Positions 11,064 through 30,162 of a DNA stretch of 62,283 bases are shown piece by piece. Each line of letters opens with the position of its first letter. The stretch's first letter is position 1. Source of the DNA: a phage. The translations under genes and the position numbers were made by a program. The stretch lies in the sequence record PZ793367.1; one strand, given 5' to 3'. Under the pieces are notes generated by a model that saw only the letters and a list, made by a program, of their open reading frames with translations, was not told the DNA's origin and searched no databases.

Positions 11064-11092
11064 TGGGGTCGCCTTGTGCGGCCCCTTTTTAT
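11064..11092 (+). terminator. rho-independent terminator
   Basis: 8-bp stem GGGGTCGC/GCGGCCCC with 5-nt loop followed by TTTTTATTAT. Confidence 0.7.
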
Positions 11093-11129
11093 TATGTATC
11101 ATTGGAAGACCTATCTGGAGGAAGTGATT

Positions 11130-11715: not shown

Positions 11716-11718
11716 GAT

Positions 11719-12381
11719 ATGTCGAATACCCTGTTAGGAATGTCTCAACGAGTTGCCCGTGACGCAGGGTATTCCGGCAATATCCAGTCGGTAGCTGTGG
11801 TGTCCGGCGACGCTGCGCGCATTGTGCAGTATGTGAAGGACGCCACCACTTATATTGAAAACCTGTGGGGTGACTGGCGCTTCCTGTGGGGCGGTATGCT
11901 TGAAGGTATCGTCGATGTCGGAGAAACGTCAATCCCCGCACCACTCGGTCACTATCGCTGGGACCAGGCACGTCTTATGTTTGACAATCACCTGGTGTAC
12001 CCGGAACTGTTTCATAACTTCAGCCCGTACAGCACCATGCTGGAAAACGGGTACCCGACTCAGTTTGTCATTATGCCGGACTCATCCATCCAGATGTACC
12101 CGCGTCCTGACAAGCAATTCAACTTTCAATTTTCCTGGTACCGTGAGTCCGTAGAGTTGGTCAACGACTCCGACACTCCGCTGGTACCCGCGCGCTTCTG
12201 CAATACAATCGTGGCCTACGCGCTGTGGCTGTATGCAATGTACGATGACGCGGCGGAACTGGCGGCTAAGTCTCAGGCTGAATACGAAAAATACCTGCGC
12301 CTGCTTGAAGCTGACCAGCGTCCAGACGGTTACCCGACCAACCAGTCGTCCGGCAACTTCTTCTCTATCTCAGCGAGTTAA
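11719..12381 (+). CDS. virion structural protein (tail tube/adaptor-like, tentative)
   Basis: 220-aa ORF with AAGGAG RBS; size and position resemble podovirus tail tubular protein A. Confidence 0.35.
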   Translation: MSNTLLGMSQRVARDAGYSGNIQSVAVVSGDAARIVQYVKDATTYIENLWGDWRFLWGGMLEGIVDVGETSIPAPLGHYRWDQARLMFDNHLVYPELFHNFSPYSTMLENGYPTQFVIMPDSSIQMYPRPDKQFNFQFSWYRESVELVNDSDTPLVPARFCNTIVAYALWLYAMYDDAAELAAKSQAEYEKYLRLLEADQRPDGYPTNQSSGNFFSISAS

Positions 12382-12383
12382 TC

Positions 12384-13787: not shown

Positions 13788-13912
13788 TTCCGGCACCAAA
13801 ATCGCTTATTATTTGTACAGAGAAAGACATCCAAAGTCTTGAGGGGAGCAGCATTGATGACTGGCAAAAAGAGGTTATTACTCAGCATACTGGTATCTCT
13901 AAATTTACTGGG

Positions 13913-14653
13913 GTGTACCAGTCTCAATCACTCGTACTCGCCCAGGCAGGCATCATTAGTATCGACCGGACTGACCAATTTGGTAACTTTAGCGACGGTA
14001 CTATCAGCGACGTCATCAGAGACACCATCGTACCTAACTATTCTCGCTGCACTTGCGCAATGGCAAGGAAGAGTCGAGGGCAGTACCGACTCCACTTTGA
14101 GGGAGACGTCAACATCGCCCTTTCCACTAATCAGGGGAATGTGATCGGCTTCTCGATGTTTGACTACGGCGGTCTGACGGTGCGTGCTGCGGTCAACCCG
14201 TACGGTCGTATCTTCTTCATCTCGGATACCGGATACGTCTATCAGGATTCCGTGGGGGCCAGTAACGATGGTGGTGAACGGTCATCAGTATTCCGTACAT
14301 CCTTCGCCAACCAGGGTGACCCGGATACCCGTAAGCGGTACCGCCGTATGGACATGAGTATCCGCGCGCAATCTTACCTTAACGCGCGTGTCGTTTTCTC
14401 GTACAATAAAGGCGCATCCACTCCGCAGGCATCGGTCGAATCTGGCCTGTTAGTGTCCGGCGGCGGTCGCTGGGATTTGTCGCTGTGGGGGCAGGTCTAC
14501 TGGGATGCCACGGAAAACCCGACAATCTCATCTGATATTGACGGCTTAGGTTTCGACATCAGCACGATGCTGTACATCCGGTCACGAATCCATCCGCAGT
14601 TTACCGCAGAGGATTTATCATTCGAATGGTCACCACGTAGAAAGGTACGATAA
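13913..14653 (+). CDS. virion structural protein, start codon uncertain
   Basis: 246-aa ORF beginning at GTG with no RBS; frame is open from 13721; see finding on candidate -1 frameshift. Confidence 0.5.
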   Translation: MYQSQSLVLAQAGIISIDRTDQFGNFSDGTISDVIRDTIVPNYSRCTCAMARKSRGQYRLHFEGDVNIALSTNQGNVIGFSMFDYGGLTVRAAVNPYGRIFFISDTGYVYQDSVGASNDGGERSSVFRTSFANQGDPDTRKRYRRMDMSIRAQSYLNARVVFSYNKGASTPQASVESGLLVSGGGRWDLSLWGQVYWDATENPTISSDIDGLGFDISTMLYIRSRIHPQFTAEDLSFEWSPRRKVR

Positions 14654-16278
14654 TGGCTAACACTTATTTCAACTACATGGACCCGGTGGAACCGGGCGAC
14701 CGTCTGGAGTCAACAAAATACAACGGCGACTTCTCCGCGATTGCCCGTGCTTTCGACATCCTGCCGTCTCCAGATGCGCTGGCCTCCAACACCGGAAACT
14801 ATGCCCGGTCACAAGGTACATCTACGGCGTACACTGTAACCCTGCCGCGCTTCGATGGTAGCTTCGGTTACATCACTGGTATGCAGGTGTTGCTCAACAT
14901 TCACGTTAACAACACCGGGGCGGCCACGCTCAACATTAACGGACTCGGCCCTAAGCCACTCGTCAACCTGACTACCGCGCTCGGCCCACTGGTGGCTAAC
15001 GATCTGCGTGCAGGCACCATCTATTCCATCCGTTATGACGGTACCCGTTTCCAGGTAGTCAACACTGTTTCCGGTGCGGTAAACGCATCGCAGACCGCAG
15101 CTACCCAGGCAACTACCGCCGCCACAAACGCTGGTACATCCGCCACAAACGCAGCCAATAGTGCCAGCGCCGCAGCGACAAGCGCGAGTAATGCAGCCAG
15201 CAGCGCCAGCGCCGCAGCTTCCGGTGTTACTGCCGCCGCAAACTCTGCCAGCGCCGCATCGACGTCTGCAACCAATGCAGCAAACTCTGCGTCTGCGGCA
15301 AACACATCTGCGGGTAACGCTGCCAGCAGCGCCACGGCAGCATCCGGCAGCGCCACGGCAGCGGCAAACTCCGCTACGGCAGCGGCAGGTAGCGCCAGCA
15401 CGGCTAACACCCGCGCCACGGCAGCGGCAGCAAGTGCTACAGCAGCGGCAAACTCTGCGACTCAGGCAGCGGCCAGTGCTCAGACTGCGCTCGACGCTAT
15501 CGGTGACGCATCGTTCAAAGCGGCGGTGATGGGTGTCCTGTTAACCAGCACGCTGGACGTGGGGACCGTCAAGTTCTATGCGCTGAATATTGATCCGAAC
15601 ACCAAATATCCCGGTACCACCTGGGTACGCCTCCCGGTATCGCAAAGCATCCGTACATCCCTGGCCGACGCAAGTGACGTCATGACCACTGTAGGTGCCG
15701 ACTCGGTAACGCTGGCTGTAGCCAACATCCCGTCGCACAACCACACCGCTACCGTCACCATCAATAACACGGACTTGGGTACTAAGGCGTCAACCAGCTT
15801 TGACTACGGTACTAAAACGTCGAGCGCTCACAACTATGGCACGATCACGATGTCCAGTACGGACCTCGGTACCAAAACTACCAACAGCTATGATTACGGC
15901 GCTGTCACCTCGTCGTCCGCTGGTGCACATACTCACACAGTACCGGTGTACACCGCCCTCGGTACAGCCAACACAATAAAGTCAGCATCCACAGGTAGTT
16001 CAAGTTCAGGTAACGCCGCAACGTCGTCCGCTGGTGCGCATACTCACACGTTCGACCTTCCGTCGCATAACCACACGGTTGCAATCGGTAGTCACAGTCA
16101 CACGATGAACCTGGGTACTCACTCCCACACCGTAGCGGTAGGTAGCCATAGTCACAGCGTGGTCGTAGGGAGTCACACCCACACAACCACAATGACGCTG
16201 GGTAATACCGGTACTGGTCAGGCTTTCAGCATCGTGGCAAAATCTACTATCCTTGTCGGCTGGAGACGTACCGCATGA
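14653..16278 (+). CDS. tail fibre protein 1
   Basis: Ala/Ser-rich collagen-like repeats (NSASAAATSASNAASSASAAAS...), C-terminal His-x-His repeats (SHNHTVAIGSHSHTMNLGTHSHTVAVGSHSHS). Confidence 0.8.
   Translation: MANTYFNYMDPVEPGDRLESTKYNGDFSAIARAFDILPSPDALASNTGNYARSQGTSTAYTVTLPRFDGSFGYITGMQVLLNIHVNNTGAATLNINGLGPKPLVNLTTALGPLVANDLRAGTIYSIRYDGTRFQVVNTVSGAVNASQTAATQATTAATNAGTSATNAANSASAAATSASNAASSASAAASGVTAAANSASAASTSATNAANSASAANTSAGNAASSATAASGSATAAANSATAAAGSASTANTRATAAAASATAAANSATQAAASAQTALDAIGDASFKAAVMGVLLTSTLDVGTVKFYALNIDPNTKYPGTTWVRLPVSQSIRTSLADASDVMTTVGADSVTLAVANIPSHNHTATVTINNTDLGTKASTSFDYGTKTSSAHNYGTITMSSTDLGTKTTNSYDYGAVTSSSAGAHTHTVPVYTALGTANTIKSASTGSSSSGNAATSSAGAHTHTFDLPSHNHTVAIGSHSHTMNLGTHSHTVAVGSHSHSVVVGSHTHTTTMTLGNTGTGQAFSIVAKSTILVGWRRTA
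15100..15470 (+). repeat. in-frame Ala/Ser-rich coding tandem repeats within tail fibre 1
   Basis: Periodic GCx-rich units encoding AANSASAA-type repeats. Confidence 0.6.
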
Positions 16279-17891
16279 GTAACCAATATTACAACTTTAT
16301 CAATCCGGCTGAAGCGGGTACGATTGTCGACCCGTTCGACTACAACCGTGAGATGGAAAAGATCACCGAGGCTTTCTCGGTGGTCCCGCCTGCTTCCCAG
16401 TTAACTTCCGGTACCCTGAACTACTCAACGGATACGGGTACCGGGAACGATCACATCGCCACGCTGGATGACTTTGATACCGACTATGTTGCTGGGAGTA
16501 ACGTTGCACTCCGAATCAATGACGCTTCTACTGGACCGTCTACCCTGAGTGTAAACGGGCTGGCCGCTAAAGACGTCACGCTGTCAGTGTTCGGCGCGGT
16601 GGCGGCAGGTGACCTGTTTGCTGAAGGCGTCTACACGTTCGTATTCAACGGTGAGCGTTTCCAGATTCTGGAGATGGGCGCACGCTATTACACGACAGCC
16701 TTCGAACAGCTTTCGATCGCTCAGGCTAAAGCAGCACTCGCGGCGGCCAGTGAAGCTACGGCACTGAGTGAGCGTAACGCAGCAGCAGCGTCGGCGGCAA
16801 ACGCCCTCGCGTCAGCAAACGCTATTACCGCGTCCAAAAATGCAGCGGCGGGTAGCGCCACGTCAGCGGCGGGTAGCGCCACGTCAGCAGCAAACTCAGC
16901 AACGTCAGCGGCGGGTAGCGCTACGTCAGCAGCAAACTCAGCAACGGCAGCGGCAGGTAGCGCTACGGCAGCGGCGAACTCTGCGACGGCAGCGGCGAAC
17001 TCTGCTACGGCTTCCGACGCCAGCGCAACGGCGGCGGCAAACTCCGCAACGGCGGCGGCAGGTAGCGCGGCGGACGCAGCAACTTACGCGCAGGAAGCTA
17101 TCGACATCGTTAACGCGCCGAACTTTCTCGACCGCGTGCAGGCGGCTGTTCTCGAACTGGAATTGTTCGTCGGTTCCACCGAGTTCTTTGACGCTAACAT
17201 TGATCCGAACGTTAAATATCCGGGTACCACATGGGTGCGTCTACCAGCGTCCACGACTATCCGTATGTCCAACGCAACGGGCACCGACGTGCTGGCCGCA
17301 ACAGGTAGCGACAATGTAGCTTTGACTGTCAGCACCCTACCATCACATAGTCACGCTGTCACAGCGGGTACAGTCAGTTCTACAGACCTCGGTACCGACA
17401 CGCTGGCATCTGTCGACCTCGGTACCGACACGCTGGCTAATTTTACCGACACGGCCAAAACGTCATCCAGTACGGACCTCGGTACCAAAACTACCAGCAG
17501 TTATGATCCTGGTGCAATAGCAACCAACTCCACGGGTGCACACACTCACACAGTCACTCCGTATGCTGCGGAAGGAAGCAACGCGCTTATTAAATCTTCA
17601 GATTTAGGTGCCGTGAAAGCGGGCGACTACACAACATCCTCATCAGGTGCACACACGCACAGCGTCAACCTGGGTGCACACACGCACACTGTAGCGATAG
17701 GTAGTCACAACCACACGTACGCGCTGGGGTCACATACTCATACCGTGGCGCTGGGGTCACATACTCACAACGTTGCTCTCGGTAGTCACAACCACAGCAC
17801 GTCAACATCCGTGACGTCGGTTGGTTCCGGTACGGCGTTCTCCGTGGTAGAATCGTCTCTAATCTTAGTCGCATGGTACAGGAGCGCATAA
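16275..17891 (+). CDS. tail fibre protein 2 (paralogue of fibre 1)
   Basis: Shares N-terminus (YFNYMDP vs YYNFINP), Ala/Ser repeats, HxH repeats and C-terminal LILVxWYR motif with the upstream fibre. Confidence 0.8.
   Translation: MSNQYYNFINPAEAGTIVDPFDYNREMEKITEAFSVVPPASQLTSGTLNYSTDTGTGNDHIATLDDFDTDYVAGSNVALRINDASTGPSTLSVNGLAAKDVTLSVFGAVAAGDLFAEGVYTFVFNGERFQILEMGARYYTTAFEQLSIAQAKAALAAASEATALSERNAAAASAANALASANAITASKNAAAGSATSAAGSATSAANSATSAAGSATSAANSATAAAGSATAAANSATAAANSATASDASATAAANSATAAAGSAADAATYAQEAIDIVNAPNFLDRVQAAVLELELFVGSTEFFDANIDPNVKYPGTTWVRLPASTTIRMSNATGTDVLAATGSDNVALTVSTLPSHSHAVTAGTVSSTDLGTDTLASVDLGTDTLANFTDTAKTSSSTDLGTKTTSSYDPGAIATNSTGAHTHTVTPYAAEGSNALIKSSDLGAVKAGDYTTSSSGAHTHSVNLGAHTHTVAIGSHNHTYALGSHTHTVALGSHTHNVALGSHNHSTSTSVTSVGSGTAFSVVESSLILVAWYRSA
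16770..17060 (+). repeat. in-frame 21/42-bp coding tandem repeats within tail fibre 2
   Basis: gcggcgggtagcgccacgtcagc units repeated, encoding AAGSATSAANSATSAAGSATAAANSAT. Confidence 0.65.
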
Positions 17892-19009
17892 TGTCAGGAT
17901 TAACTAACCCGGCACAGTCGGATAGCACCACTACTAACCAGCCGGATCAGGTGCTCGCTACGAGCACCCCTTCGTCCACGTCCGGTGCGCTGGGTGCGAG
18001 TAATATTCAGAACGACGCGTCGCAGCAGTCGAGCGTGGCCTCGTCAATGGCACAGGCGGCACAACCGCAACAGCAGCAACAGCAGGCTGTACCCGTTGCG
18101 TCACAGCCAGCACCGCAGCAGGTGACCAATGGTGCCGTGGCAAACAACAATAACGCCAACGCCGCCAATAACTACCAGACTGTGGACCAGGCGTACAGCC
18201 AGTTGACCGCACAGAATAGCCCGATGATGCAGCAGGCAGCAGCTACGGCCCAGCGTCAGGCAGCACGTCGCGGTATGGGTAACTCGTCTATGGCTGTCGG
18301 TATGGGTCAGGCGGCCACGGATGCTGCCGCTCAAAACATGGCGTCGCAGATGGCTACCCAGTCGCAGAGTCAGGCCCAGTACAACCGCAGTCAGACGGAA
18401 GCCGAGCGCGCCCAGCAGATTAAGGAAAGTCAGACTGACCGCCAGTTGACGGAAGCCGAACGTGCCGCCCTGGTGCAAGAATCACAAGGTCAACAGCAAA
18501 TCACCAACCAGGCGTCACAGTTCGCACAGTCGCTGGAAGAACAGATTCGTTCCGGTAAGGTGAGTGAAGCGCAGGCCCAGCAGCAGATCAACAACCAGGC
18601 GTCACAGTTCAGCCAAAGCCTGGCCGAGCAAATCCGCTCCGGTAAAGTGAGCGAAGCACAGGCAGCCGAGCAGATTAAGAATCAGGCAGCGCAGTTTAAA
18701 GACTCCCTGAAGCAACAGCAGTTTGAGTTCAATGCCAACCTCGGTCTGGAGAACGCCAAGCTGAAGCAGGACGCCGCGCAGTTCGCAACGTCTATTCAGG
18801 CTAACGCCCGTGGCAGCTATACGGACTCGGTGAACAACCTGTTAAACAACAGTTCGGTGAACATCAACAATATTTCTTCCAACCCGGATTTGACCACGGA
18901 CCAGAAGAACAAGCTGATCTCGCAGGAACTGAGCAACCGTAACAATGACCTGAAGTATTTGCAGTCACTTTATGGTAACGTTACATCCTGGTCCGACAAA
19001 CTGAAATAA
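17891..19009 (+). CDS. Gln-rich virion/internal protein with about 90-bp tandem repeats
   Basis: ATG at 17891 with AGGAG RBS (TAATG overlap); repeats QQITNQASQFAQSLEEQIRSGKVSEAQA x2.5 at 18491-18718. Confidence 0.5.
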   Translation: MSGLTNPAQSDSTTTNQPDQVLATSTPSSTSGALGASNIQNDASQQSSVASSMAQAAQPQQQQQQAVPVASQPAPQQVTNGAVANNNNANAANNYQTVDQAYSQLTAQNSPMMQQAAATAQRQAARRGMGNSSMAVGMGQAATDAAAQNMASQMATQSQSQAQYNRSQTEAERAQQIKESQTDRQLTEAERAALVQESQGQQQITNQASQFAQSLEEQIRSGKVSEAQAQQQINNQASQFSQSLAEQIRSGKVSEAQAAEQIKNQAAQFKDSLKQQQFEFNANLGLENAKLKQDAAQFATSIQANARGSYTDSVNNLLNNSSVNINNISSNPDLTTDQKNKLISQELSNRNNDLKYLQSLYGNVTSWSDKLK

Positions 19010-19018
19010 GGGGCGGCT

Positions 19019-19321
19019 ATGAGTTTCTTCGGTAGTTTTCTCGATACGGCGTCCAGCGCTTTCAACTGGCTGAGCAACAACAAGGCGGCACTGGATTTAA
19101 TCTCCGGTGCTGCAAAAGGTTACGGTGCTTACATGCAGTACAAGCAGGGTAACCAGCAAATGAAATTGATGCAGAAGCAGCAGGAGAACGAGCAGCGTCG
19201 CTGGAATGATACGCACGGTGTCATCGACAGTTACGACAACTCTATCCCTCCGGGGCAGCAGGCTAACTCTGCGTTGCTGTCCGGCAACATGGCCGACGCA
19301 ATGAAACAAGGAGTCAAATAA
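19019..19321 (+). CDS. hypothetical protein
   Basis: 100-aa ORF with AAGGGG RBS. Confidence 0.4.
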   Translation: MSFFGSFLDTASSAFNWLSNNKAALDLISGAAKGYGAYMQYKQGNQQMKLMQKQQENEQRRWNDTHGVIDSYDNSIPPGQQANSALLSGNMADAMKQGVK

Positions 19322-20280
19322 TGGCACAGGCACAAGGCGGTACCGCAGGTAGCTCATCAACCCGTGGTAACGGCAGCTTATCGGCTGGCGCATCTTCGCG
19401 TGGCGGCGGCTTAGGCGGTGGCCTCGGTGGTAGCAACGGCGGCAGCAATAACGCGGGTAACAGCAAAGGTAACGCTGCGTCGAGCAATGCGGCCAGTGGG
19501 GCTTCAGCAGGCGCAGCAGCGGCAGGCGCAACGGCGGCAGCGGCAGGTGACTCTAAGCAGACTGGCGGCAGCCTCATGGGCGGTCTGAAGTCGGCGGTGG
19601 ATAGCGCACGTTCTTCACGCACCGCAGCAGCCGCACCGTCAACCAGCGCACCACAAGGTACTTTGTCGGCGTCCGACGTTGCAGGCATTGACAGCGAAAG
19701 CCATTCAGCCGCTGCGAACCTGGCAGCACGCGATCAAGGTTTCCGTGACACAGCTAACGCTAAGACCACCGCAGCAACAATGGGCGGCCTCGGTATGGCT
19801 GGTAGTCTCGTAGGCAATCTTGCCAGTAAACTGACAGCAGCGGCAGCACCGACTGAAGGTAGCGACCTGAGCGCTAACCACAACGTTGGTAAGGCGTGGG
19901 CTAACAGCGTCGGTCCCAGCAAAACTGTGAGCATGGCTGCAAGCCTGGCTGGCGGTATTCTCGGCGGTCCTATCGGTTCCGCACTGGCTGGCTTCGCGCT
20001 GGGTATCGCTAACGATCAGGCGGCCAAAGCAGCTAACCCGCAAGCGATGGCCGCTACACCACAGCAGATTGCCAACCGCGCTACGTTCGGTCAGCAGGCT
20101 GGTACCAGCAGTTCCGACCAGTACGATGCTACAGGTGCCAGTTCCGATACCGGCAATAGCGGCAGCAACATGATGGCATCCATGAGCGCAGCAGCACAAC
20201 CTGGCGCTGGCTTCCAGGCGGCTGGCGATTTCAGCGAGCAGCGTAAAGTGGACAACCTCAACTTAGGGAGCATCATCTAA
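19321..20280 (+). CDS. Gly/Ala/Ser-rich low-complexity virion protein
   Basis: 319 aa, AAGGAG RBS; GGLGGGLGGSNGGSNNAGNSKGNAASSNAASGASAGAAAAGATAAAAG. Confidence 0.5.
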   Translation: MAQAQGGTAGSSSTRGNGSLSAGASSRGGGLGGGLGGSNGGSNNAGNSKGNAASSNAASGASAGAAAAGATAAAAGDSKQTGGSLMGGLKSAVDSARSSRTAAAAPSTSAPQGTLSASDVAGIDSESHSAAANLAARDQGFRDTANAKTTAATMGGLGMAGSLVGNLASKLTAAAAPTEGSDLSANHNVGKAWANSVGPSKTVSMAASLAGGILGGPIGSALAGFALGIANDQAAKAANPQAMAATPQQIANRATFGQQAGTSSSDQYDATGASSDTGNSGSNMMASMSAAAQPGAGFQAAGDFSEQRKVDNLNLGSII

Positions 20281-20837
20281 TGGGCGTTAGCCAGGAATAT
20301 ATCGACCAGCAGCGATACTACGCTGACGCGGTGCAGGCATATAAAGCCAACGGTATGAACCACAACGCCGCCTGGAAAAAGGCGGAAGCTGATTGGGCCG
20401 CAGGTGAGCGTAACGTCGCCCGGAACGCCGACACCACTGGTTACAAACCTCAGAACGCTGACACCAAAGCGTCACAGGGTGTTGTCCCGGCGTCGCAGCG
20501 TAACAAGGATGGTACCCCTATCAACACGGCAAGTTCCGGCAGTAACAATAGCGGCAACTCTACTGAAGCCGTGCGCTACCGTGGTTCAACATCACAGACC
20601 CGCGTGGGTACCGATACCCGCGTGCGTGGTGGTACCGAAGCATCCAAAGCTGGTCAGGGCATGGGTAACACCGATCAGGGTATGGCTGCGGCAATGAAGA
20701 GTGCCACAGGCAAACAATTCGCTGACTCCAGTGACGTTCAACCCGTGGCCTCCAAGCAGAACGCATGGCAGGGAAACCGGACTCCGGTTAATCTGGCTTC
20801 CGTACAGCAACGTGTGTTAAAGTCTATCGGTCAATAA
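20280..20837 (+). CDS. hypothetical virion protein
   Basis: 185 aa, AGGGAG RBS, Thr/Gly/Ser-rich. Confidence 0.5.
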   Translation: MGVSQEYIDQQRYYADAVQAYKANGMNHNAAWKKAEADWAAGERNVARNADTTGYKPQNADTKASQGVVPASQRNKDGTPINTASSGSNNSGNSTEAVRYRGSTSQTRVGTDTRVRGGTEASKAGQGMGNTDQGMAAAMKSATGKQFADSSDVQPVASKQNAWQGNRTPVNLASVQQRVLKSIGQ

Positions 20838-20852
20838 ATTAAGGGGCGAATT

Positions 20853-21539
20853 ATGTCAATGATGGATGCAATGAGTATGGGCGGCCAGCCTCCGCAGCAG
20901 GAAACGCAGGCACCACAGACTCAACCAATGGACCAGAAGACGTTGCGTATGGGCGGCGATGACCCTGCGGAAATGGAGAAGCTCTATAACAAAGTTATGG
21001 CGCTGATCTCTTCCGAGATTTGGGAAGGTCAGGGTGCCGACCAGGTGTCTGCACAGTTGATGGAAGATGACTCTGAGCCAGCCGAGGTTGTCGGCAAGTT
21101 CACTGGCTTCTATCTTATGATGGCTACTGCCGCTGCCAGAACTAACGGTGGTTCATTCCCGCCTGTGGTTATCGTGGGTGCTGCCGCAGAGACGTCGAGT
21201 CAGCTTACTGATCTGGCGCTTATGCTGAAACTGATCTCCCCGGAAGAAGCGGACGATACCGCAGACGCTGGCGCACTGATTGGTCTGGAAGTTCTCATCG
21301 CCCAGGGCGGTAACCAGATGGCACCTGAAGAGAAACAGGAATACGCCGACATCGTTAAGGCTGTCATCAACGCATCGCCGAACGCTCAGGAAATCGCTGA
21401 GGAAGGTGCCGAGGATGCCATCGAAGAAGTTGAAGAAATGGGCGCACCGGACGACAGCGCTGAAGAGATGGAAGCACAGACCGATGTTGATATGGCAGAG
21501 AAACCGCAGGGCATGGCCGCTGCAATGGGAGGCGCGTAA
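20853..21539 (+). CDS. acidic virion protein
   Basis: 228 aa, AAGGGG RBS, strongly acidic C-terminus. Confidence 0.5.
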   Translation: MSMMDAMSMGGQPPQQETQAPQTQPMDQKTLRMGGDDPAEMEKLYNKVMALISSEIWEGQGADQVSAQLMEDDSEPAEVVGKFTGFYLMMATAAARTNGGSFPPVVIVGAAAETSSQLTDLALMLKLISPEEADDTADAGALIGLEVLIAQGGNQMAPEEKQEYADIVKAVINASPNAQEIAEEGAEDAIEEVEEMGAPDDSAEEMEAQTDVDMAEKPQGMAAAMGGA

Positions 21540-22393
21540 TGAGTATCGGTGAAGCACTGGCGGCAATGTTTGCAGGTGCAGCAGGTGAAGCGGCAGGTAA
21601 CCGCGCGACTGAAATCCGTGACGAAGAAAAAGCTCGTCTGGCAGAAGCACGCGAACTGAAAATGATGGCGCTCCAGCAGAAGTACCAGACGTCCGAGCGT
21701 GAGGCCAGTCAGGCTTACGGTACGTCCGAGCGTAAGGATACTCAGGCTTACAACTCTGCCGAGAAGCAGAAAGACCGTGACTTCCAGTCTTCCGAGCGTC
21801 AGGCATCACAGGCATTCCAGGCTGGCGAGAATGCTAAGTCACGCGCGGCTCAGGCTGGTAGCGATGGTGTTGGTCCAAACGGTAAGCGTCTGCAAGGTAC
21901 ACCGCAGATGGAGAAAGACGAAGACGGCAACATGACGGGTCGTATGATCTTTACCTATCGTGACGGTACCGTGCAGGTTAAAGCCATTGACGATCTGCCG
22001 GGTGGCGACGCTGACACCAAATCCAGCAAAGCACAGCGTGAGTCCGACGCGGCTGCGTATGCTAAGAAGCGTGTCAGCGAGCAAGCTGGCCTCCTGTCAT
22101 CCGATAAGGAAGACTTCAAAGATTATGGTGGTAGTCGCACCAAAGCTGAAGAAGCCTACAAGCAGGAGTATCTCAACAAGAACAAAGGTGGCGGCAGCAA
22201 TGAAGAGTTACCGGGCAGCGGTCCTAAGTTCCAGGAGGGCGCAGATCTGGCGACTAAGGAAGCTGAGAAAGGATACACCGCTAACCAGCAAGCCATGATC
22301 GCTCGCGTTAAGGAGAAGTACCCTGACGCATCCGATGACCAAATCGCGGCGGCCATTCGTGCTAATCCGCAATATGCACCAATGTTCAAATAA
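21539..22393 (+). CDS. hypothetical virion protein with SER-ASQA repeats
   Basis: 284 aa, GGGAGG RBS; four TSEREASQAY-like repeats. Confidence 0.5.
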   Translation: MSIGEALAAMFAGAAGEAAGNRATEIRDEEKARLAEARELKMMALQQKYQTSEREASQAYGTSERKDTQAYNSAEKQKDRDFQSSERQASQAFQAGENAKSRAAQAGSDGVGPNGKRLQGTPQMEKDEDGNMTGRMIFTYRDGTVQVKAIDDLPGGDADTKSSKAQRESDAAAYAKKRVSEQAGLLSSDKEDFKDYGGSRTKAEEAYKQEYLNKNKGGGSNEELPGSGPKFQEGADLATKEAEKGYTANQQAMIARVKEKYPDASDDQIAAAIRANPQYAPMFK

Positions 22394-22434
22394 ATGTGCT
22401 ATGCTTCCCCTATCAACAAGGGGGAGCATTTCTA

Positions 22435-25400
22435 ATGGCTAGTAACATCGACCTTTCTGGACTGGACTTATCCCAGCCAAATCAACAACCTGCAACGAAG
22501 AAGTCTGAAAAGACTGCACCTGCTATTGACCTGTCGACGGTTAACTTTGACCTGAGCGACGTAGACTTTTCCGGTATTGGAAATGAGAAGGCTGTCACAG
22601 AACCAGCAAAAGAAGATAGCTGGGGCGACGTAATTTACAAATCTCTCGCCGCGATGCCTGAGCGTATGCAACGTTCATGGCAGGGTATCAAACAAGGCGT
22701 GGCCGTTAAAGGTCAAGACCTGACTGACGGGGTGCTGGCTGAACGCCTGCGTAACGATCCGTCATATGCTGCCGAACTGGGGATTGACCCGGCTACCTTT
22801 ACCGCTGCCGAAGGCGACACGTATGCGACCAAACTGCAAAAGAATAAAGCTCTCTACGCCGCTATTGATAAAGCGAAGGCCGCAGAACTGAATAAGGATG
22901 CCGACTTTGTTGCCGCGCGTGATGAAGGTCTTCGCCTGTCAAACGAGATTGCCAAAACTGCACCGAAGACTGGTGACGAGTGGTCAGCTAAAAACCTGGT
23001 ATCCACAATCCTCACTGGCGCGCAGGACATGTCTCCGGCAATCCTGACGTCCATCCTGTTGAAGCGTCCGGTCGCTGGCCTCGCTGAGATGACTGGTCAG
23101 GCGTACGGTTCCTACTATCAGGACTCAATCGACAAAGGTCTGTCTCCGGCAGAAGCCGATAACCGCGCTACCATGTTCGCCGCACTGGAACCAATCACTG
23201 AAGCGGTACCGCTGGGCCTCATCATGAAGAAGGGTGCGACTAGCCTGACTGACCTCGGTAAGTCTGCAATGGCTGAAGGTATCCAGGAGTCCGCTACCCA
23301 GGCTATCCAGAACGGTTACGACATTGGTGTGCTTGACGAAGATATGACGGTAGGCCAGTTCCTGAATGACGTGGCGTTCTCCGGTGTAACTGGTGCTGGC
23401 GTAGGTGGCGTGCTGCATGGCGCGGTGCAAGCTCCCGGCATGGTCAAAGACTGGAAGGATAACCGCTCTGTTAACAACGCTATCGGTGACGCTGCGGCTG
23501 AGTCCGGTCAGGCGGTAGAAGGCGTGGACCCGAACGAGTACGACGCTGTGCGTGCTGAGATGGGCGGCGGTGACGTGCTGGACCAGATGGTTGAACAGGC
23601 ATCTCCTGCAATCACTGAAGCTCGCAAGTCTGCCTACATGGAAGCGCGCGCCCAGGGTATGTCTCCGGCTGAAGCGATGGCCGCATCCCGTGAAGTCGGT
23701 GAAGTCGACGCTATGGATCAGATGGTCAGCGAACTGTTCGACTCCCCGGACTCCATCTACTATGCGAACAAGGCAAGCGCCACTAACGCACCGCAGTCTG
23801 TAGCACAGATGGTACAGCAGCAGGTAGCGCAGGGTGACATTGGTCCGCTTCCGGGCGAGACTAAAGGTCTGCCGTCTCCGGGGCAAACTTCCACCATCGC
23901 TATGCCCGGTCCAGTTGCGCAGGTTAAAGAGGCCACTGGCTACAATCCACGCGGTGCGGCTGAAGAGTCTCCGGTACTGGCAGCAGTCCAGCAGAAACTG
24001 GAAGCGCCAGCACTGCCGCCGCAGGTTACTGAAGCTGTGGTACCGCCAGCACTGCCGCCTAAAGCTGAAGTGACTCCGCCTGCGTTACCGCAGATTGACG
24101 TAGCCGCTGCACTGGAACCTACCGTTCCTGCCGCTGAGCCAGCCGCTGCCGAGGTTAAACCGAAGCCAGCACTGTTTGCCCGTACCAAAAAGAAAGCCGC
24201 GCCAGAAGTCGATACAGAAGCACTGGCCGCCGAAGAAGCACGTCAGGCAGAACTGAAGGCGAAAGGTGACGAGGCTGTAGCCAAATACGTTGAGCGTGAA
24301 TCCGTGCGTCCGGCGTTACCGGGTAAGAAGCCGCCAGCTATTCAGGTCACCAACAAGATCCTGAAGGAAGCCAACGAGCGTGGCGTTGACGTCGGCAATA
24401 AAGTGAACTGGAACGGCAAGGAGTATTCCGTCGATAAATTCCAGGGCCGTGCTGTACGTCTGGTTGATGAGAACGGCAACGGTCACATTGTTGATGCCCG
24501 TGAAATCAACGTGCCATCTGTGGTACCGGAAGGTATGAAGCGTGTATCCCAGGAAACCAAAGACGCCCGTGAGCGTTACGACCTGGCCCCTGTAGAGTTC
24601 GAAGATGAGCGCAACCTGGGTGAGATGGTTACCGATGCACAGCAGGCGACCGACGATGTACTGGCGCAGTCTGCCGAAGTTCAGCGTGACCTGGGTGAGA
24701 TGATCGCTGAGAAGGAGAAGGACAACGCCGCAATTGAAGGTGAGTCCACTCGCGTTACCGACGTTGAAGGTCGTGTTGGTTTTGAACCAGTGGAAGGTAC
24801 CGACCTGGACGGGAAGTATGCGAAAGACTCCCACGGTGAAGTCCGCAAGATTACTGGCGTGCAAGGTCGTCGCTTCGTGCTGGACAATGGCGACATCATG
24901 ATTCGTCGCATTGGTGACACCAACGTGATGGATGCTCCACCTAAAGGCGCACGTAAAGCGATGTCGATGGAGGAACGTATTGTAGCTAACACGCTGCAAG
25001 GTATGCTGCATTCACTGAACGATACCAAGCGTCCGCTAAACAAACTGCGCGAAAACATGTCTCACGCTAGTAATCAGGTTGATGAACAGTACCGTCATCT
25101 GTACGCGCCACTGAAGGGTAAGACTCGCGCGGCCATGCGTAAGGAACTGGAAGACCGCATGTCCAGTATCGCTGAGCAGTCACCTAAAGGTCTGAGCAAA
25201 GAAAGTCAGGCGACGGCTGACCGTCTGCGTGAGAAGTCTGCCGCACGCGTCGAGTCTTTCGAGAAGTCACTGGAAGATTTCACGCGTGGTATGAAACCGC
25301 TGGTACGTCGCAACTACATTCGCGCCCTGGAGAAGATCCAACCGGATGGTATTACCCTGAAGGAAACCATCGACCGTGCGTATGCCCGTGGCGATAAAAT

Positions 25401-28400
25401 TGACTCCCGTGACATGTCGGCACCAGCCAAACATTACGTGGCCTACAAAGAAGCTCGCGTACCGAAGAAGACTGACAAGCCGGACGTTACACCGGGCGTC
25501 GACTATCACACGCTGGTAGGTAAAACTTTCGAGGAAGACGGCGAGACGTTCACCGTCAAGTCTATTCACGATACGTACCTGGCTACCGAAGACTCACAAG
25601 GTCGTCGTGAGATTTTCGGCAAGGACTACGCTAAGCGTAAGATTGACAAGCAGTCCGGCGCGGCCAGCGTTAAACCTGCGACCGAGAAGAAAGGGATGTC
25701 GCCGGAAGATGTAGCCGTGGTTGCTACAGACTTCCTGAAGAAGTTCAAAGGTGCACAGGCGATCAACATGTCCGTCATGCAGCGTCAGGAAGACATGGGT
25801 ATCGACCTGCCGGAAGGTAGCGTACTGCTCGGCTTCTACGATGCTGGCAACGTGAGCGCCAAGCTGATCTCTGAAAACCTGACCAGCAAGGAAGAAGTGG
25901 AAGCGCTGTTGCGTCACGAAATCATCGTGCACTACGGCCTGCGCGCTCGCCTGTCTAAACCGGAATACGACGCTGAGATGGATAAAATCCTGGCCGCTGA
26001 TAAGTCCCCGGCGCTGGCGAAGTATTTCAAAACTGTACGCGAGCAATACAGCGACCTGTATGACATGAACTCACCTGACGCACAACGCATGATGGCTGAA
26101 GAAGTCCTGGCGCTGGCTGCGGAAAACCCGGCTATCCTGGAGAAGTCCAACGTCATCACCCGCGTGATTGAAGCTCTGCGTCAGTTGATGATTAAAGCCA
26201 AACTGATTGACGGTCGCGCCAGCATGGAGTCAGTACGCCAGCTTATTCAGGCCAACGCTCAGTACCTGCGTGACAACACTGTCAACCGTGACGACGTGCG
26301 TAAGTCTCTGCCGCCGATGCAGTACAGCGCGCCGCGTAACTTTGCCGCCAGCCTGAAAAAGAAAAATGACATCGAGTCTGCGGAAGTGGACGAAGACATC
26401 AAGCAGGGTATGCGTGACACCATGTACCGCGATGACCGCTCTCTGTTCCAGCGCATCAAAGACATCATGAAAGACAACGGTCTGACGATGGAAGGCTTAT
26501 ATCAGAAAGGCGTGGATGACCTGTACACCATCGCCAAATATGAGAAGGCTGGTAACAACGGTGAACTGCGTCAGGGTAAAGAGTCAGCGTACAAGATGGC
26601 AATGCTGGCGAAGAACGTGAACAGCACCGTGGCCGTCGCAATGAACCACGGCGCTCCGGTATACAAAGACGGTGGCATCAGCCTGAACAAGAACACCAAA
26701 GGCTTCACCGAAATCTTCAAGCCCGTGCTGGAGATGAAAGGTAACATGCTGCCAGTGTGGGAATACTGGGCGGGTGCTGTGCGTGCGCAGCGCTTGATGA
26801 AGGAAGGCCGCGAAAACCTGTATACCGAGAAGCAGATCAAAGACATTATCGACTATGTTAACCGTCGCCCGGAAATGCGTAAGGTGTTCAACCAGGCGCA
26901 CAAAGACTGGCGTGAGTTCAACAAAGCTATCCTCGACTTCGGTGAGCAAACTGGCATCGTGGATCCTGAACAGCGTAAACTGTTCGAGTCCGACGATTAC
27001 GTTCCGTTCTACCGTGTGGATGAGGAAGTGGACCGCGTGACAGCACCGTCTGGTAAACGTGGCCTCGCTGATCAGTCTTCCGGTATCCGCCGTCTGAAAG
27101 GTGGCGCTGGTAAGATGGACATCCTGGAGAACATGGCGCGTAACGTTAACCACATGATCACCTCCGGCTACAAGAACGCGGCCATGCAGAAGGTGCGTGA
27201 CATCACCATCAACGCAGCGCTGGAAGAAGTACCGCATAACTTCAAGCCAGTCGGCATCAGCAACGAGCAGATGAAACGTGCGCTGACCAACCTGGGTCTG
27301 AAGGTTGAAGGTATGACCGCTGAGCAGATGGCGCAATACTCCAACCTGTTCACCGCAGTAGCACCGCAGGGCGCTAACATTATCTCCGTGCGTGAAGGTG
27401 GTAAACCGAAGTATTACGAAGTGACGGATCCTCAGTTGCTGGAAGCTATCGCAGGTGTTGGCCCGGAAGCCGTTGATACCCTCATCAACATTCTCGGCTG
27501 GCCTAAGCGTGTGTTCACCGCAGCCGTGACGTCAACGCCTAACTTCGTTATGACCAACTTCGTACGTGACGTGATGGGTAACTATGTGCAGATGGCGAAA
27601 GCAACTGGCCGCAACGATACACCGACGATTGTCAAAGATGTACTGACATTCCGTCCGTTCTTCAAAGCGTTCCAGGGTGCGATGCGTTCCGTCCGTAACG
27701 ATGCGATGGCTGTCGATTATCATGTGGCTGGCGGCATGATGGGTGGCTACGACAACTCACGTCCAGAGTCGGTTGCCAAAAACATGCGCAAACTGGAGAA
27801 AGGCGGCACCATCATTAACTCACCGAAGAAGCTGTGGGAAATGTACAGCAAGTTGCTGACCGCATCTGAACAGGCCACGCGCATGGGTGTTTACGAAGAT
27901 GTCCTGAAGCACACTGGGGATCCGGTGGAAGCTGCATACCAGTCTAACGATGTGCTGAACTTCAGCCGCCGTGGCAGCAGCCGTTTGACTAAAGCTGTAA
28001 TGGCGATTACCCCGTTCCTGAATGCCCGTGTGCAGGGTCTGGACCGTATGGTGCGCGGTGGTAAAGAGAACCCGAAAGCCTTCATGCTGAAAGGTGCTCT
28101 GCTTGTTGGTGCAACGATGACCCTTATGGCAATCAACGCAGACGACGAACGTTACTGGGCGCTGCCGGAACACGAACGTGATTCCTTCTGGATCATCTTC
28201 GCTGGCGACACTCGCTACCGTATCCCGAAACCGTTCGAACTGGGCGCACTGTTTGGTACTATCCCTGAGCGTGCATTCGAAGCGCTGTACCGTGACGACC
28301 GTATGTTCGGTGCACGCATGGGCTTCATGCTGGGTAACACCTTCGCAATGGACTGGCCTCAATTCTTCAAGCCGATCTATGAAGACCAGACCAACATGAA

Positions 28401-29028
28401 CAGCTTTACTCAGCGTCCGGTTGTACCGCAGTCACTGCAACGTCTGGAAGCTAACCAGCAGTACAGCACCACGACACCGGAGTGGATTAAGGATGTGAGC
28501 AAGGCGTTACCTGAAGCTGCCCCGGAATGGATGCGTAGTCCGCTGCGTCTCCAGCATATGATTGAAGGTTACACCGGAACAGTCGGTCAGTACATCATCG
28601 GCGTAACGGACGTGGCCTATCGCAAAGGAACCGGTACCGAAAAAGTTGCCCCGGCTAAAAAGGATTTCGATTACCCGGTGGTGAAAACTTTCGTACGTGG
28701 CGGTGTGTCCGGCGACAAATACACCGACCGTCTGTACCAGATGAGCGAGAAGGCTGGTCAAACGTACGGTACCCTGAAGGCGTACAAAGACCAGAAGAAC
28801 ATGCAGGCGTATCGGGAATTTAAAACCGAGAAGGCCAGCGTGTTGTCTGCCCGTAAGTCAATTGAGAAGGGCGTTGCCCGGATGCAGAAGTACAACCGCC
28901 AGACGAAAGAGATTTACGCGAACGACAGTATGTCACCTGAAGCGAAGCGTGCAGAACTGGATGCCTTGCAGGTTAAGAAGAACGAACTGGCGAAAGAATT
29001 GAGTGACAAATATTGGATGTTGTTTTAA
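22435..29028 (+). CDS. giant virion-associated protein (putative internal/ejection protein)
   Basis: 2,197 aa from ATG at 22435 (AAGGGGGAG RBS); last gene of late operon; hydrophobic helices near C-terminus; no RNA polymerase motifs recognised. Confidence 0.6.
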   Translation: MASNIDLSGLDLSQPNQQPATKKSEKTAPAIDLSTVNFDLSDVDFSGIGNEKAVTEPAKEDSWGDVIYKSLAAMPERMQRSWQGIKQGVAVKGQDLTDGVLAERLRNDPSYAAELGIDPATFTAAEGDTYATKLQKNKALYAAIDKAKAAELNKDADFVAARDEGLRLSNEIAKTAPKTGDEWSAKNLVSTILTGAQDMSPAILTSILLKRPVAGLAEMTGQAYGSYYQDSIDKGLSPAEADNRATMFAALEPITEAVPLGLIMKKGATSLTDLGKSAMAEGIQESATQAIQNGYDIGVLDEDMTVGQFLNDVAFSGVTGAGVGGVLHGAVQAPGMVKDWKDNRSVNNAIGDAAAESGQAVEGVDPNEYDAVRAEMGGGDVLDQMVEQASPAITEARKSAYMEARAQGMSPAEAMAASREVGEVDAMDQMVSELFDSPDSIYYANKASATNAPQSVAQMVQQQVAQGDIGPLPGETKGLPSPGQTSTIAMPGPVAQVKEATGYNPRGAAEESPVLAAVQQKLEAPALPPQVTEAVVPPALPPKAEVTPPALPQIDVAAALEPTVPAAEPAAAEVKPKPALFARTKKKAAPEVDTEALAAEEARQAELKAKGDEAVAKYVERESVRPALPGKKPPAIQVTNKILKEANERGVDVGNKVNWNGKEYSVDKFQGRAVRLVDENGNGHIVDAREINVPSVVPEGMKRVSQETKDARERYDLAPVEFEDERNLGEMVTDAQQATDDVLAQSAEVQRDLGEMIAEKEKDNAAIEGESTRVTDVEGRVGFEPVEGTDLDGKYAKDSHGEVRKITGVQGRRFVLDNGDIMIRRIGDTNVMDAPPKGARKAMSMEERIVANTLQGMLHSLNDTKRPLNKLRENMSHASNQVDEQYRHLYAPLKGKTRAAMRKELEDRMSSIAEQSPKGLSKESQATADRLREKSAARVESFEKSLEDFTRGMKPLVRRNYIRALEKIQPDGITLKETIDRAYARGDKIDSRDMSAPAKHYVAYKEARVPKKTDKPDVTPGVDYHTLVGKTFEEDGETFTVKSIHDTYLATEDSQGRREIFGKDYAKRKIDKQSGAASVKPATEKKGMSPEDVAVVATDFLKKFKGAQAINMSVMQRQEDMGIDLPEGSVLLGFYDAGNVSAKLISENLTSKEEVEALLRHEIIVHYGLRARLSKPEYDAEMDKILAADKSPALAKYFKTVREQYSDLYDMNSPDAQRMMAEEVLALAAENPAILEKSNVITRVIEALRQLMIKAKLIDGRASMESVRQLIQANAQYLRDNTVNRDDVRKSLPPMQYSAPRNFAASLKKKNDIESAEVDEDIKQGMRDTMYRDDRSLFQRIKDIMKDNGLTMEGLYQKGVDDLYTIAKYEKAGNNGELRQGKESAYKMAMLAKNVNSTVAVAMNHGAPVYKDGGISLNKNTKGFTEIFKPVLEMKGNMLPVWEYWAGAVRAQRLMKEGRENLYTEKQIKDIIDYVNRRPEMRKVFNQAHKDWREFNKAILDFGEQTGIVDPEQRKLFESDDYVPFYRVDEEVDRVTAPSGKRGLADQSSGIRRLKGGAGKMDILENMARNVNHMITSGYKNAAMQKVRDITINAALEEVPHNFKPVGISNEQMKRALTNLGLKVEGMTAEQMAQYSNLFTAVAPQGANIISVREGGKPKYYEVTDPQLLEAIAGVGPEAVDTLINILGWPKRVFTAAVTSTPNFVMTNFVRDVMGNYVQMAKATGRNDTPTIVKDVLTFRPFFKAFQGAMRSVRNDAMAVDYHVAGGMMGGYDNSRPESVAKNMRKLEKGGTIINSPKKLWEMYSKLLTASEQATRMGVYEDVLKHTGDPVEAAYQSNDVLNFSRRGSSRLTKAVMAITPFLNARVQGLDRMVRGGKENPKAFMLKGALLVGATMTLMAINADDERYWALPEHERDSFWIIFAGDTRYRIPKPFELGALFGTIPERAFEALYRDDRMFGARMGFMLGNTFAMDWPQFFKPIYEDQTNMNSFTQRPVVPQSLQRLEANQQYSTTTPEWIKDVSKALPEAAPEWMRSPLRLQHMIEGYTGTVGQYIIGVTDVAYRKGTGTEKVAPAKKDFDYPVVKTFVRGGVSGDKYTDRLYQMSEKAGQTYGTLKAYKDQKNMQAYREFKTEKASVLSARKSIEKGVARMQKYNRQTKEIYANDSMSPEAKRAELDALQVKKNELAKELSDKYWMLF

Positions 29029-29144: not shown

Positions 29145-29519
29145 ATGGACATGGGATATTACAACATGAACAAGCAAATCAGAGTGGAAATGCTTGTCGG
29201 CATGGTGACATTAACGTGGTCAATCGTGGCGGCAGTATTCAAACAGCCAGTCATTATTGATGAGTTAACTGGTATCATGCCTGGCGCATGGTGGGTATTC
29301 TCAGGCATTGTAATTGGTGGCGCTCAGATCTATATCTCCCGCAACCCTGAGCGATGGATGGGAACATTCAGCCACTGGTGTGTAGCATTCTTCAGTTGTA
29401 TCTTCTGGTGTTATCTCGGCATGGCCGCACAAGCCGCCGCAGTCGGAGTAGTTCCCATCCTGATTTTCTGGTCTACCGCTGGCGTCACTTTATGGGAGTT
29501 GGCACATGTTCGAACTTAG
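29145..29519 (+). CDS. integral membrane protein (about 4 predicted TM helices)
   Basis: 124 aa with four hydrophobic segments; GGAG RBS. Confidence 0.5.
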   Translation: MDMGYYNMNKQIRVEMLVGMVTLTWSIVAAVFKQPVIIDELTGIMPGAWWVFSGIVIGGAQIYISRNPERWMGTFSHWCVAFFSCIFWCYLGMAAQAAAVGVVPILIFWSTAGVTLWELAHVRT

Positions 29520-29739
29520 TTCAATCCCGGTGGACGCTCCGTTACCTTTCATTGCGATCGCAGTGTTATTCAACCTGGTACGCCATGCGTTGAATCTTCA
29601 CCACGAACGTAAGAAAGAGGCGGCGGAAGAGGCCACGAACGAAAGGATTGTTGTGTTGTCGTCGAAGCTGGCGAAGGCGGAACAGACTATCGAGCACTTG
29701 AGGGAAGAGGTGGAACGCTTGAAAAACAAAGGGGCTTAA
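29506..29739 (+). CDS. membrane-anchored coiled-coil protein (possible spanin-like or lysis accessory protein)
   Basis: N-terminal TM segment LPFIAIAVLFNLV then charged helical region; GGGAG RBS. Confidence 0.45.
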   Translation: MFELSSIPVDAPLPFIAIAVLFNLVRHALNLHHERKKEAAEEATNERIVVLSSKLAKAEQTIEHLREEVERLKNKGA

Positions 29740-29750
29740 CGCCCCTTTTT
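29728..29750. terminator. bidirectional rho-independent terminator at convergent gene junction
   Basis: AAAGGGGC-TTAAC-GCCCCTTTTT; stop codons of both converging genes lie in or next to the loop. Confidence 0.7.
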
Positions 29751-29936
29751 AATACTCGCTGCAATCTTCAGTTCGACAGGTACGCGATTGAGATCGCGGT
29801 GAATGCCTACATCCGGTGGTGCGGAAATACGTAGACCGACGTTACCATTCTCAGAGTTCTCTACCGTCACGACAATATCGTTACCGATGTAGACGCTCTG
29901 ACCTTCACGTCTGGTAATACGGAGTCCCTTAGCCAT
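29736..29936 (-). CDS. csrA: CsrA/RsmA-like RNA-binding regulator
   Basis: [48 protein letters not shown] aligns with E. coli CsrA [44 protein letters not shown]; GGAG RBS. Confidence 0.75.
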   Translation of the reverse strand: [66 protein letters not shown]

Positions 29937-30162
29937 TCTTCTCCGCCTTAGCTTTCTTAGCTTTGATGACGCGACTGATCGCCACCAGTAAAGTAATGAC
30001 ACCAGACACGACCGGGAGATATTCTTCCGGTACCACAGCCTGGAATAAATGCGGGGCAGTCTGCCACACTACTAATGCTGCATCAGGTACCGTGGTCAAC
30101 ACGGTAGTAACGGCGATACCGATAGTGATACCAGCGTCATGCAGCGCTTTGGATTTGTCCAT
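29929..30162 (-). CDS. putative holin
   Basis: 77 aa, two hydrophobic helices and Lys-rich C-terminus KAKKAKAEKNG; AAGGAG RBS; directly downstream of endolysin. Confidence 0.5.
   Translation of the reverse strand: MDKSKALHDAGITIGIAVTTVLTTVPDAALVVWQTAPHLFQAVVPEEYLPVVSGVITLLVAISRVIKAKKAKAEKNG

Follow-up and report, generated by a model that had tools for sequence, protein, structure and literature searches.

The window analysed here, the whole 62,283-nt stretch of sequence record PZ793367.1 on which all positions and strands are given, is a Xuquatrovirus genome that corresponds to that of Escherichia phage PTXU04 permuted by 245 nt, and its largest gene (22435..29028, plus strand) encodes a cysteine-free protein of 2,197 amino acids (aa) and 242 kDa. 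The open reading frame (ORF), as judged from ORF calling and translation, runs uninterrupted from the ATG at 22435 to the stop codon that ends at 29028, and a Shine–Dalgarno sequence, GGGGGAG (22420..22426, plus strand), can be read 8 nt ahead of the ATG. An in-frame GTG at 22396 could extend the N-terminus by 13 codons, but the published PTXU04 ortholog starts at the ATG. With 6,594 nt, the gene makes up 10.6% of the window, which bears out a preliminary description of this DNA that had noted an ORF of 2,197 codons, or 6.6 kb, covering more than 10% of the genome. The ortholog in PTXU04 is PTXU04_00025 (gp25, QBQ76639.1), a protein of the same length in the same position that is 99% identical in amino acid sequence; at the DNA level, the gene is 98.4% identical to PTXU04 over its full length and 93.4% identical to phage Pondi. 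In PTXU04, the product is labeled "hypothetical protein." Upstream, the same strand carries the genes for terminase, portal, capsid, and tail fibres, and the giant gene ends this structural operon, following two tail-fibre genes and six genes for low-complexity proteins.

On sequence evidence, the giant protein is a phage-type polyvalent protein of the LPD38 class. It is composed of five parts: an N-terminal helical domain, a disordered linker, a mosaic middle, a zincin-like domain, and a basic C-terminal core. A Pfam search of the whole protein returned LPD38 (PF18857) alone, at aa 1904–2081 (28144..28677, plus strand), with E = 6.7e-38 and 131.1 bits, far above the gathering cut-off of 27, and with 187 of the 189 profile positions covered. 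LPD38 is one of the 40 "LPD" domains to which no function was assigned by Iyer et al. (PMC5512222). It is embedded in a basic core of about 860 aa (aa 1335–2197; 26437..29025, plus strand; isoelectric point (pI) 9.4, net charge +22), which is of mixed alpha/beta structure with long helical hairpins at its end and which is predicted by AlphaFold2 (AF2) with predicted local distance difference test (pLDDT) values of mostly 75–90; the C-terminal third of the protein as a whole is basic as well (pI 9.3). As all 82 homologues align from about aa 1335 to the C-terminus, the conserved unit is far larger than the Pfam LPD38 model. Hidden Markov models built here place the end of the core at a median distance of 7 aa from the C-terminus of the relatives, and within 30 residues of it in 121 of 128 proteins. 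Two PHROG families, 9854 and 18222, neither with an assigned function, match aa ~1645–2188, and no meaningful structure match for the core was found in the PDB. The most conserved elements in the core are two linear motifs, DYVPFYR (aa 1521–1527) and SGIRRLKGG (aa 1549–1557; together 26995..27105, plus strand), with Y1522, P1524, and R1527 as invariant or near-invariant columns. The loop that carries them is left unplaced by the model (pLDDT below 50 at model positions 453–488), and we regard it as a candidate interaction or cleavage site. The sole strongly hydrophobic stretch of the protein, AFMLKGALLVGATMTLMAI (aa 1882–1900; 28078..28134, plus strand), has a Kyte–Doolittle average of 1.76 over its 19 residues.

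Upstream of the core, aa 1090–1300 (25702..26334, plus strand) are predicted to form a zincin-like metallopeptidase domain, an assignment that is based on the AF2 topology and on motif conservation. The region holds the sequence RHEIIVHYG and, 60 residues further on, AEEVLA. The first of these contains the predicted metal-binding and catalytic motif H1161-E1162-I-I-V-H1166 (25915..25932, plus strand), and the second, A1221-E1222-E1223 (26095..26103, plus strand), would provide the third metal ligand. When 20 diverse homologues are aligned, H-E-x3-H-x-G is invariant, and so is an (E/D)-E further on; across 276 aligned copies of the domain the first His is found in 272, the Glu in 275, the second His in 272, and the second downstream Glu in 274 (all at least 98.6%). 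The AF2 model shows a helix (model positions 21–33), three strands (42–46, 64–67, and 72–76), a motif helix (83–103), and a later helix (145–161), with pLDDT values of about 68–91 in these core elements. H1161, E1162, and H1166 are positioned on the motif helix and E1222/E1223 on the later one, and the predicted three-stranded sheet with its flanking N-terminal helix lies ahead of the motif helix. The modeled topology matches the description of the zincin core by Iyer et al.; they also reported a set of metallopeptidases in polyvalent proteins in which HEXXXH replaces HEXXH (PMC5512222), and we assign the domain to this HEXXXH clade as a putative peptidase. Among the closest known systems, we also count MATCAP/TMCP (KIAA0895L) and DPP III, which are HExxxH gluzincins.

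In a set of 1.84 billion proteins, 9,479 cluster representatives, P0084–P0231 among them, matched a profile of the domain at E ≤ 0.001. Most of these are giants of 2,000–6,000 aa, and they often contain two to four copies each. The domain also occurs in short proteins of 225–660 aa beside ART-PolyVal, LPD3, MuF_C, PBECR1, and LPD37. When the profile was compared with PDB sequences, all matches were at chance level (E ≥ 0.09), and when the HEXXXH regions of eight family members were searched against Pfam, none of them matched a model, and one gave faint Peptidase_M78/Zincin_1 scores (E 0.09–0.5) on which we do not rely. Wherever the HEXXXH domain and the C-terminal core occur together, which is the case in 107 proteins, the core comes directly after the domain, with a median gap of 49 aa, and the two can therefore be regarded as a conserved C-terminal super-module.

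The N-terminal half is of a different character. Residues 58–341 (22606..23457, plus strand) are predicted to form a bundle of long Ala/Gly-rich helices (AF2 pLDDT ~70–78), whose last part is a conserved hydrophobic segment rich in Gly, GVTGAGVGGVLHG. This N-terminal domain is not covered by any Pfam model and is found again at the N-terminal end of distant LPD38 giants (P0042, P0044, P0054, P0080, and P0082) and of the giant of Vibrio phage D274. A profile built from it additionally finds proteins on short contigs (P0232–P0237), apparently N-terminal fragments of giants, in which the domain directly follows LPD22. That the domain is itself a divergent LPD22 was considered and rejected, because in proteins having both, LPD22 lies upstream of the matching region. 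The domain is followed by a disordered, acidic Ala/Pro-rich linker (aa 342–640; 23458..24354, plus strand) with 19.7% Ala, 11% Pro, a pI of 4.5, and pLDDT values mostly below 50; in the AF2 model, the disordered stretch extends over aa 342–597. A homologue search with the first 500 aa returned a single protein, P0083, as low-complexity words probably swamped the candidates; we do not regard P0083 as a naturally split gene, since it lies 72 nt from the contig end and is most likely a truncated gene call.

Between the linker and the zincin-like domain, aa ~695–1070 (24517..25644, plus strand) form a mosaic "cargo" region with predicted beta units at ~795–823 and 1031–1062 and a helical unit at 845–1008 (pLDDT ~80). 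No more than 17–30 of 42 relatives align here, and alignment breakpoints recur at aa 694/695, 744, 915/916, 1025, and 1072, including in phages that are more than 90% identical elsewhere. On this comparison, the middle appears as a set of small modules that are exchanged between near-identical phages. The region gave no match to a known family, BLASTP detected no internal repeats in aa 600–1100, and fold searches with the N-terminal half gave nothing significant.

The preliminary description had left the domain content of the protein unresolved, and the five parts and the membership in a named class, the LPD38-bearing phage-type polyvalent proteins, now replace that statement. It had proposed structure prediction as a check, and the AF2 models show a helical N-terminal domain, a zincin-like domain, and a mixed alpha/beta core. 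Its small beta-rich inserts correspond to the two predicted beta units of the mosaic region and to more of them within the C-terminal core. The N-terminal third, which it characterized as acidic and Ala/Glu/Lys-rich, is acidic and Ala-rich as described (aa 1–732: 15.3% Ala, pI 4.6, net charge −36), but Lys accounts for just 6.4%. Of the C-terminal hydrophobic helices that it listed, the cited example LLVGATMTLMAINA is present at aa 1889–1902; there is, however, a single stretch of transmembrane strength (aa 1882–1900) and not several. The absence of a peptidase signature cannot be upheld in view of the conserved H-E-x3-H (aa 1161–1166) and E-E (aa 1222–1223) of zincin type, whereas the absence of RNA polymerase and transglycosylase domains was confirmed by searches of Pfam, NCBIfam, and PDB sequences. 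Confident homology that changes the functional call had been named as a refutation, with tape-measure proteins as one case: the homology found with the polyvalent/LPD38 class corresponds to this in part, but none was found with tape-measure proteins.

Two features of polyvalent proteins are found in the giant protein: it combines at least two domains of the polyvalent-protein inventory, LPD38 and the HEXXXH zincin-like domain, in one large polypeptide, and it is encoded in a structural gene context by a phage with portal and terminase. A third feature, effector domains aimed at host defence or host takeover, is seen in relatives and not in the giant protein, for which searches of Pfam, NCBIfam, PHROGs, and PDB sequences revealed no enzyme family besides the peptidase. 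Several more specific identities were considered and rejected. The N6-adenine methyltransferase and the helicase of a P1 DarB-like antirestriction protein were not found at E ≤ 1; the D274 relative contains both. Neither in sequence nor in fold does the giant protein resemble the ejection proteins gp14/15/16 of T7 or gp7/16/20 of P22, and it has no lytic transglycosylase domain; a transglycosylase reading was dismissed for lack of any match. No tape measure protein family was matched in Pfam or PHROGs, and PTXU04 has been identified as a podovirus by electron microscopy (PMC6563267). No polymerase family or PDB match pointed to an N4-like virion RNA polymerase, and a PDB sequence search with the whole protein gave no match. 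The sole NCBIfam hit, to methionine synthase with 15 bits against a cut-off of 387, was treated as noise.

Among deposited phages, the core was found in 155 records, including Stx-converting phages, Vibrio, Pelagibacter, and Bacillus Page-like phages, Thalassomonas phage BA3, and VvAW1, with genome sizes of about 34–88 kb for those listed. Among these, the phages with a familiar morphology are short-tailed. In distant relatives of the giant protein, the C-terminal super-module is retained, in many cases together with the N-terminal domain, and conflict domains lie in between: ART-PolyVal, ddrB-ParB, MuF_C, InPase, SNF2/ResIII helicases, methyltransferases, SLT, PBECR nucleases, and RadC. As the relatives insert domains between conserved ends, the protein of the window can be understood as a cargo-poor form of a two-ended chassis. 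Its closest relatives from isolated phages outside the genus, the ~3,160-aa giants of the Vibrio phages D274 and 1.232.O, have the N-terminal domain in common with it and are 39–42% identical in the peptidase-plus-core part (D274 39%), but where the giant protein has a linker and small modules of ~730 aa, they insert ~1,700 aa with ResIII/helicase, methyltransferase, and ExoX-C domains. The giants of phi24B (gp47, 2,811 aa) and of 933W-like phages, represented in our set by P0057 and P0080, are likewise giant proteins of short-tailed phages and have LPD38 and the HEXXXH domain in common with the giant protein; identity is about 25% and limited to these modules, and they carry InPase, LPD5, and LPD1, which the giant protein lacks. 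The "DarB-like" giants Bcep22 gp75 and JC1 gp69 (~4,500 aa) also have LPD38 near the C-terminus, and their genes close the morphogenesis module, with the lysis genes following, but they contain a lytic transglycosylase, a methylase, a helicase, and LPD3, none of which is present in the giant protein.

More remote systems are comparable in concept. The virion RNA polymerase of N4 and DarB and DdrB of P1 are the prototypes of very large capsid-packaged proteins that are injected with the DNA, and a zincin-like peptidase domain is present in the N4 polymerase and in P1 DdrB; in the N4 protein, the region bearing that domain is needed for encapsidation (PMC5512222). The giant protein differs from them in having no RNA polymerase, methylase, or helicase domain, and sequence similarity is not detectable. 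With T7 gp14/15/16 and P22 gp7/16/20, it shares the gene position after the tail genes and a presumed function, extending the tail through the envelope. The comparison is no more than an analogy; a single 242-kDa chain stands against three separate proteins that are similar to it neither in sequence nor in fold.

Experimental evidence on the location and importance of such proteins comes from three systems. The phi24B gp47 protein is abundant in purified virions, as evidenced by mass spectrometry, and absent from the cryo-EM map, and its authors therefore propose an internal location as an encapsidated ejection protein. JC1 gp69 was detected with 51 unique peptides in virion mass spectrometry, with the second-highest score after the capsid protein. 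In PTXU04, the CRISPRi-ART study scored gp25, the same protein as the giant of the window, as "Fit" and validated this with single guides, which caused a large drop in plating efficiency; gp19, gp20, gp23, and gp24 were "Fit" as well, and gp26 and gp27 "Not Fit," which means that four of the six low-complexity proteins encoded upstream are essential and the two membrane proteins encoded downstream are not. The authors of that study described gp25 as a putative polyvalent protein with a C-terminal LPD38, in which no other domain could be inferred with confidence. The published annotation of this essential protein thus names LPD38 alone, whereas the peptidase, the N-terminal domain, the full core, and the mosaic middle are defined here.

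With a probability of roughly 60%, we consider the giant protein to be a delivery protein that resides inside the capsid and is ejected, with a conserved chassis that is essential in its own right. This reading is also favoured by the place of the gene behind the tail-fibre genes and the six low-complexity protein genes, an order seen in similar form in relatives, and by the lack of cysteine in the proteins of this region. As no effector enzyme is recognizable and the gene is nevertheless essential, it is probably the chassis, and not any cargo, that carries out the essential step. The protein would be made late in infection and taken into the capsid via its conserved peptidase-plus-core end, in analogy to the N4 virion RNA polymerase; this end is the best candidate for an encapsidation or ejection determinant, because it is invariant in position and sequence and because the peptidase-bearing region of the N4 protein is needed for encapsidation. 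At infection, the protein would thread out through the portal and the short tail together with the cysteine-free low-complexity proteins encoded upstream, and it could then aid the DNA in crossing the envelope, where the N-terminal helical domain may act. The peptidase would most likely cut its own polypeptide, either at packaging or after ejection. Virion association has been shown for distant homologues, and packaging, ejection, and any membrane or channel role of the giant protein itself are what we infer. The internal or ejection protein of the preliminary description is hence the best-supported reading, owing to the homologues phi24B gp47 and JC1 gp69 that were found in virions, and its assignment as a virion protein stands as an inference, beside a particle fingerprinting of PTXU04 that assigned other proteins. 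The channel that it proposed, on the other hand, finds no direct support: the protein has a single hydrophobic helix, and its models did not match the structure of any known ejectosome protein.

Several observations weigh against the delivery function. Mass fingerprinting of gel bands from PTXU04 (15% gel) assigned just gp7, gp10, gp11, and gp12, and gp25 was not reported (PMC6563267). No Pfam peptidase model, including the model for polyvalent-protein metallopeptidases, detects the HEXXXH domain, even in the strongest members of the family. The AF2 model of the N-terminal half, which covered aa 1–1069, is poor, with a mean pLDDT of 54, and the single hydrophobic helix seems to be part of the folded LPD38 region (model positions 811–832). 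Finally, the essentiality of the gene could reflect head assembly and not ejection.

This last point leads to the alternative that the protein builds or stabilizes the DNA-filled capsid as a core, a plug, or an organizer of DNA spooling, without any delivery. Such a role would account for the essentiality, for the location of the gene within the structural operon, for a basic C-terminal core that could bind DNA, and for the abundance of phi24B gp47, which is nevertheless invisible in symmetrized as well as asymmetric maps. It is difficult to reconcile with the enzymes of the relatives, which make sense only within a host cell and therefore indicate that the chassis is delivered, and a candidate for the scaffolding gene, gp9, is already present in the phage; we regard a pure head-assembly function as unlikely. 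Also unlikely, if slightly easier to imagine, is a protein that, like P1 DarB, serves solely to carry anti-defence effectors, with the modules at aa ~695–1070 as payload, the rest as vehicle, and no role in DNA entry. The class has been defined as one of conflict proteins (Iyer et al., PMC5512222), relatives are annotated as DarB-like or methylase and contain methylase and helicase domains, and the swapping of cassettes in the middle between near-identical phages is a typical signature of an arms race. However, an effector enzyme is not detectable in the giant protein, and the gene is essential in laboratory hosts, where the phage should be able to do without an accessory anti-defence factor. 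In addition, the related phage HelliStehle (Bas95) is reported to be very sensitive to restriction-modification, although a homologue in HelliStehle is unconfirmed and was not among the database matches.

Two further explanations would place the protein outside the capsid. As an external part of the tail, it could be a tail extension, a plug, or a fibre hub, in line with the location of its gene after the tail-fibre genes and with the lack of cysteine that it shares with the tail-fibre proteins, but the phi24B homologue is absent from the resolved tail and portal structure, and the protein has a disordered linker of ~300 aa and no match to a fibre or beta-helix family, which renders this role very improbable. 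The last explanation is that of a late intracellular protein that is not part of the virion at all, either a host-takeover factor or a polyprotein that is cut into cytoplasmic products, as the CRISPRi-ART authors suggested from size and disorder, and as the presence of a peptidase domain would allow. Since homologues were detected in purified virions and the gene lies in the late structural operon, we give this explanation the least credit. Returning to the delivery protein, a bolder version of this interpretation, which we put forward only tentatively, is that N-terminal domain, HEXXXH peptidase, and LPD38 core together might constitute a distinct and widespread DNA-delivery or ejection machine of short-tailed phages, with a fold unlike any solved structure. 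It is just as speculative that this machine would fill the role of T7 gp14–16 or P22 gp7/16/20, with the enzymes of the relatives as optional passengers. If true, the cargo-poor, essential version of the coliphage would represent the class in its minimal form and offer a tractable model of it.

We would like to emphasize which aspects were known: the class of polyvalent proteins, LPD38, the HEXXXH peptidase clade, and the essentiality of PTXU04 gp25 have been published, and our analysis adds the assignment of the peptidase domain, the N-terminal domain, the full extent of the core, the coupling of peptidase and core, the mosaic middle, and the recognition of a cargo-poor essential form. For annotation, the gain is small, as it is a "hypothetical protein" label that can be replaced. 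The more general point is that polyvalent proteins rank among the largest and commonest phage proteins. An essential form that keeps the conserved ends and the peptidase but has no recognizable effector enzyme, and that belongs to an E. coli phage with knock-down tools at hand, separates the question of the chassis from that of the cargo enzymes, and makes the function of the chassis directly testable in a PTXU04-like coliphage. The HEXXXH domain matters beyond this one phage, given its 9,479 cluster representatives and the fact that Pfam-A does not detect it in the sequences tested.

The genes surrounding the giant gene deserve some attention. The six low-complexity proteins encoded directly upstream (17873..22393, plus strand; 378, 100, 319, 185, 228, and 284 aa) are all free of cysteine and of extreme composition, being Gln-, Ala/Gly/Ser-, or Glu/Asp-rich, and Pfam and PHROG searches with the neighbouring small proteins, including these six, gave no match. 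Vibrio phage D274 and one metagenomic relative have a comparable run of small genes ahead of their giant genes, and the six proteins are probably internal or ejection partners of the giant protein. Eight tested ORF products of the region 14653–29028, with 4,670 aa in total, do not contain a single cysteine, compared with 1.4–2.8% in replication proteins; such a cysteine-free set would be in keeping with proteins exposed to the outside or to the periplasm.

Downstream, the giant gene is followed by two small genes on the plus strand (29145..29739) that end the rightward operon, and it is thus not the last late gene, as had been assumed in the preliminary description. Their ORFs encode a multi-pass membrane protein of 124 aa (29145–29519) and a 77-aa protein with a membrane anchor and a coiled coil (29506–29739). 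At this end of the operon, a hairpin with a perfect 8-bp stem, AAAGGGGC-GTTAA-GCCCCTTT (29728–29748), acts as a bidirectional terminator for converging transcripts. On the minus strand, a homologue of the carbon storage regulator CsrA is encoded at 29736–30002, beside the holin gene; in the Bcep22-like phage JC1, another carrier of an LPD38 giant, the virion module includes a gene for a CsrA that may be virion-associated.

Two observations concern the structural arm upstream. The region 12384–14653 (plus strand) corresponds to PTXU04_00016, which scored as "Fit" in PTXU04 and encodes a tail or "head-closure" protein of 756 aa whose C-terminus is amidase-like. In the window, a 1-nt deletion near position 13780 relative to PTXU04 splits this ortholog into two ORFs, 12384–13787 and 13913–14653, which could reflect an error in sequencing, a frameshift, or the decay of an essential gene into a pseudogene. 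Apart from the 245 nt by which the genome is permuted (62039–62283), the identity to PTXU04 is 93.3% over the first 17.5 kb (1–17515), the part with the packaging, head, and tail genes, compared with 97.6–99.1% elsewhere, and this lower identity suggests recombination in the structural arm.

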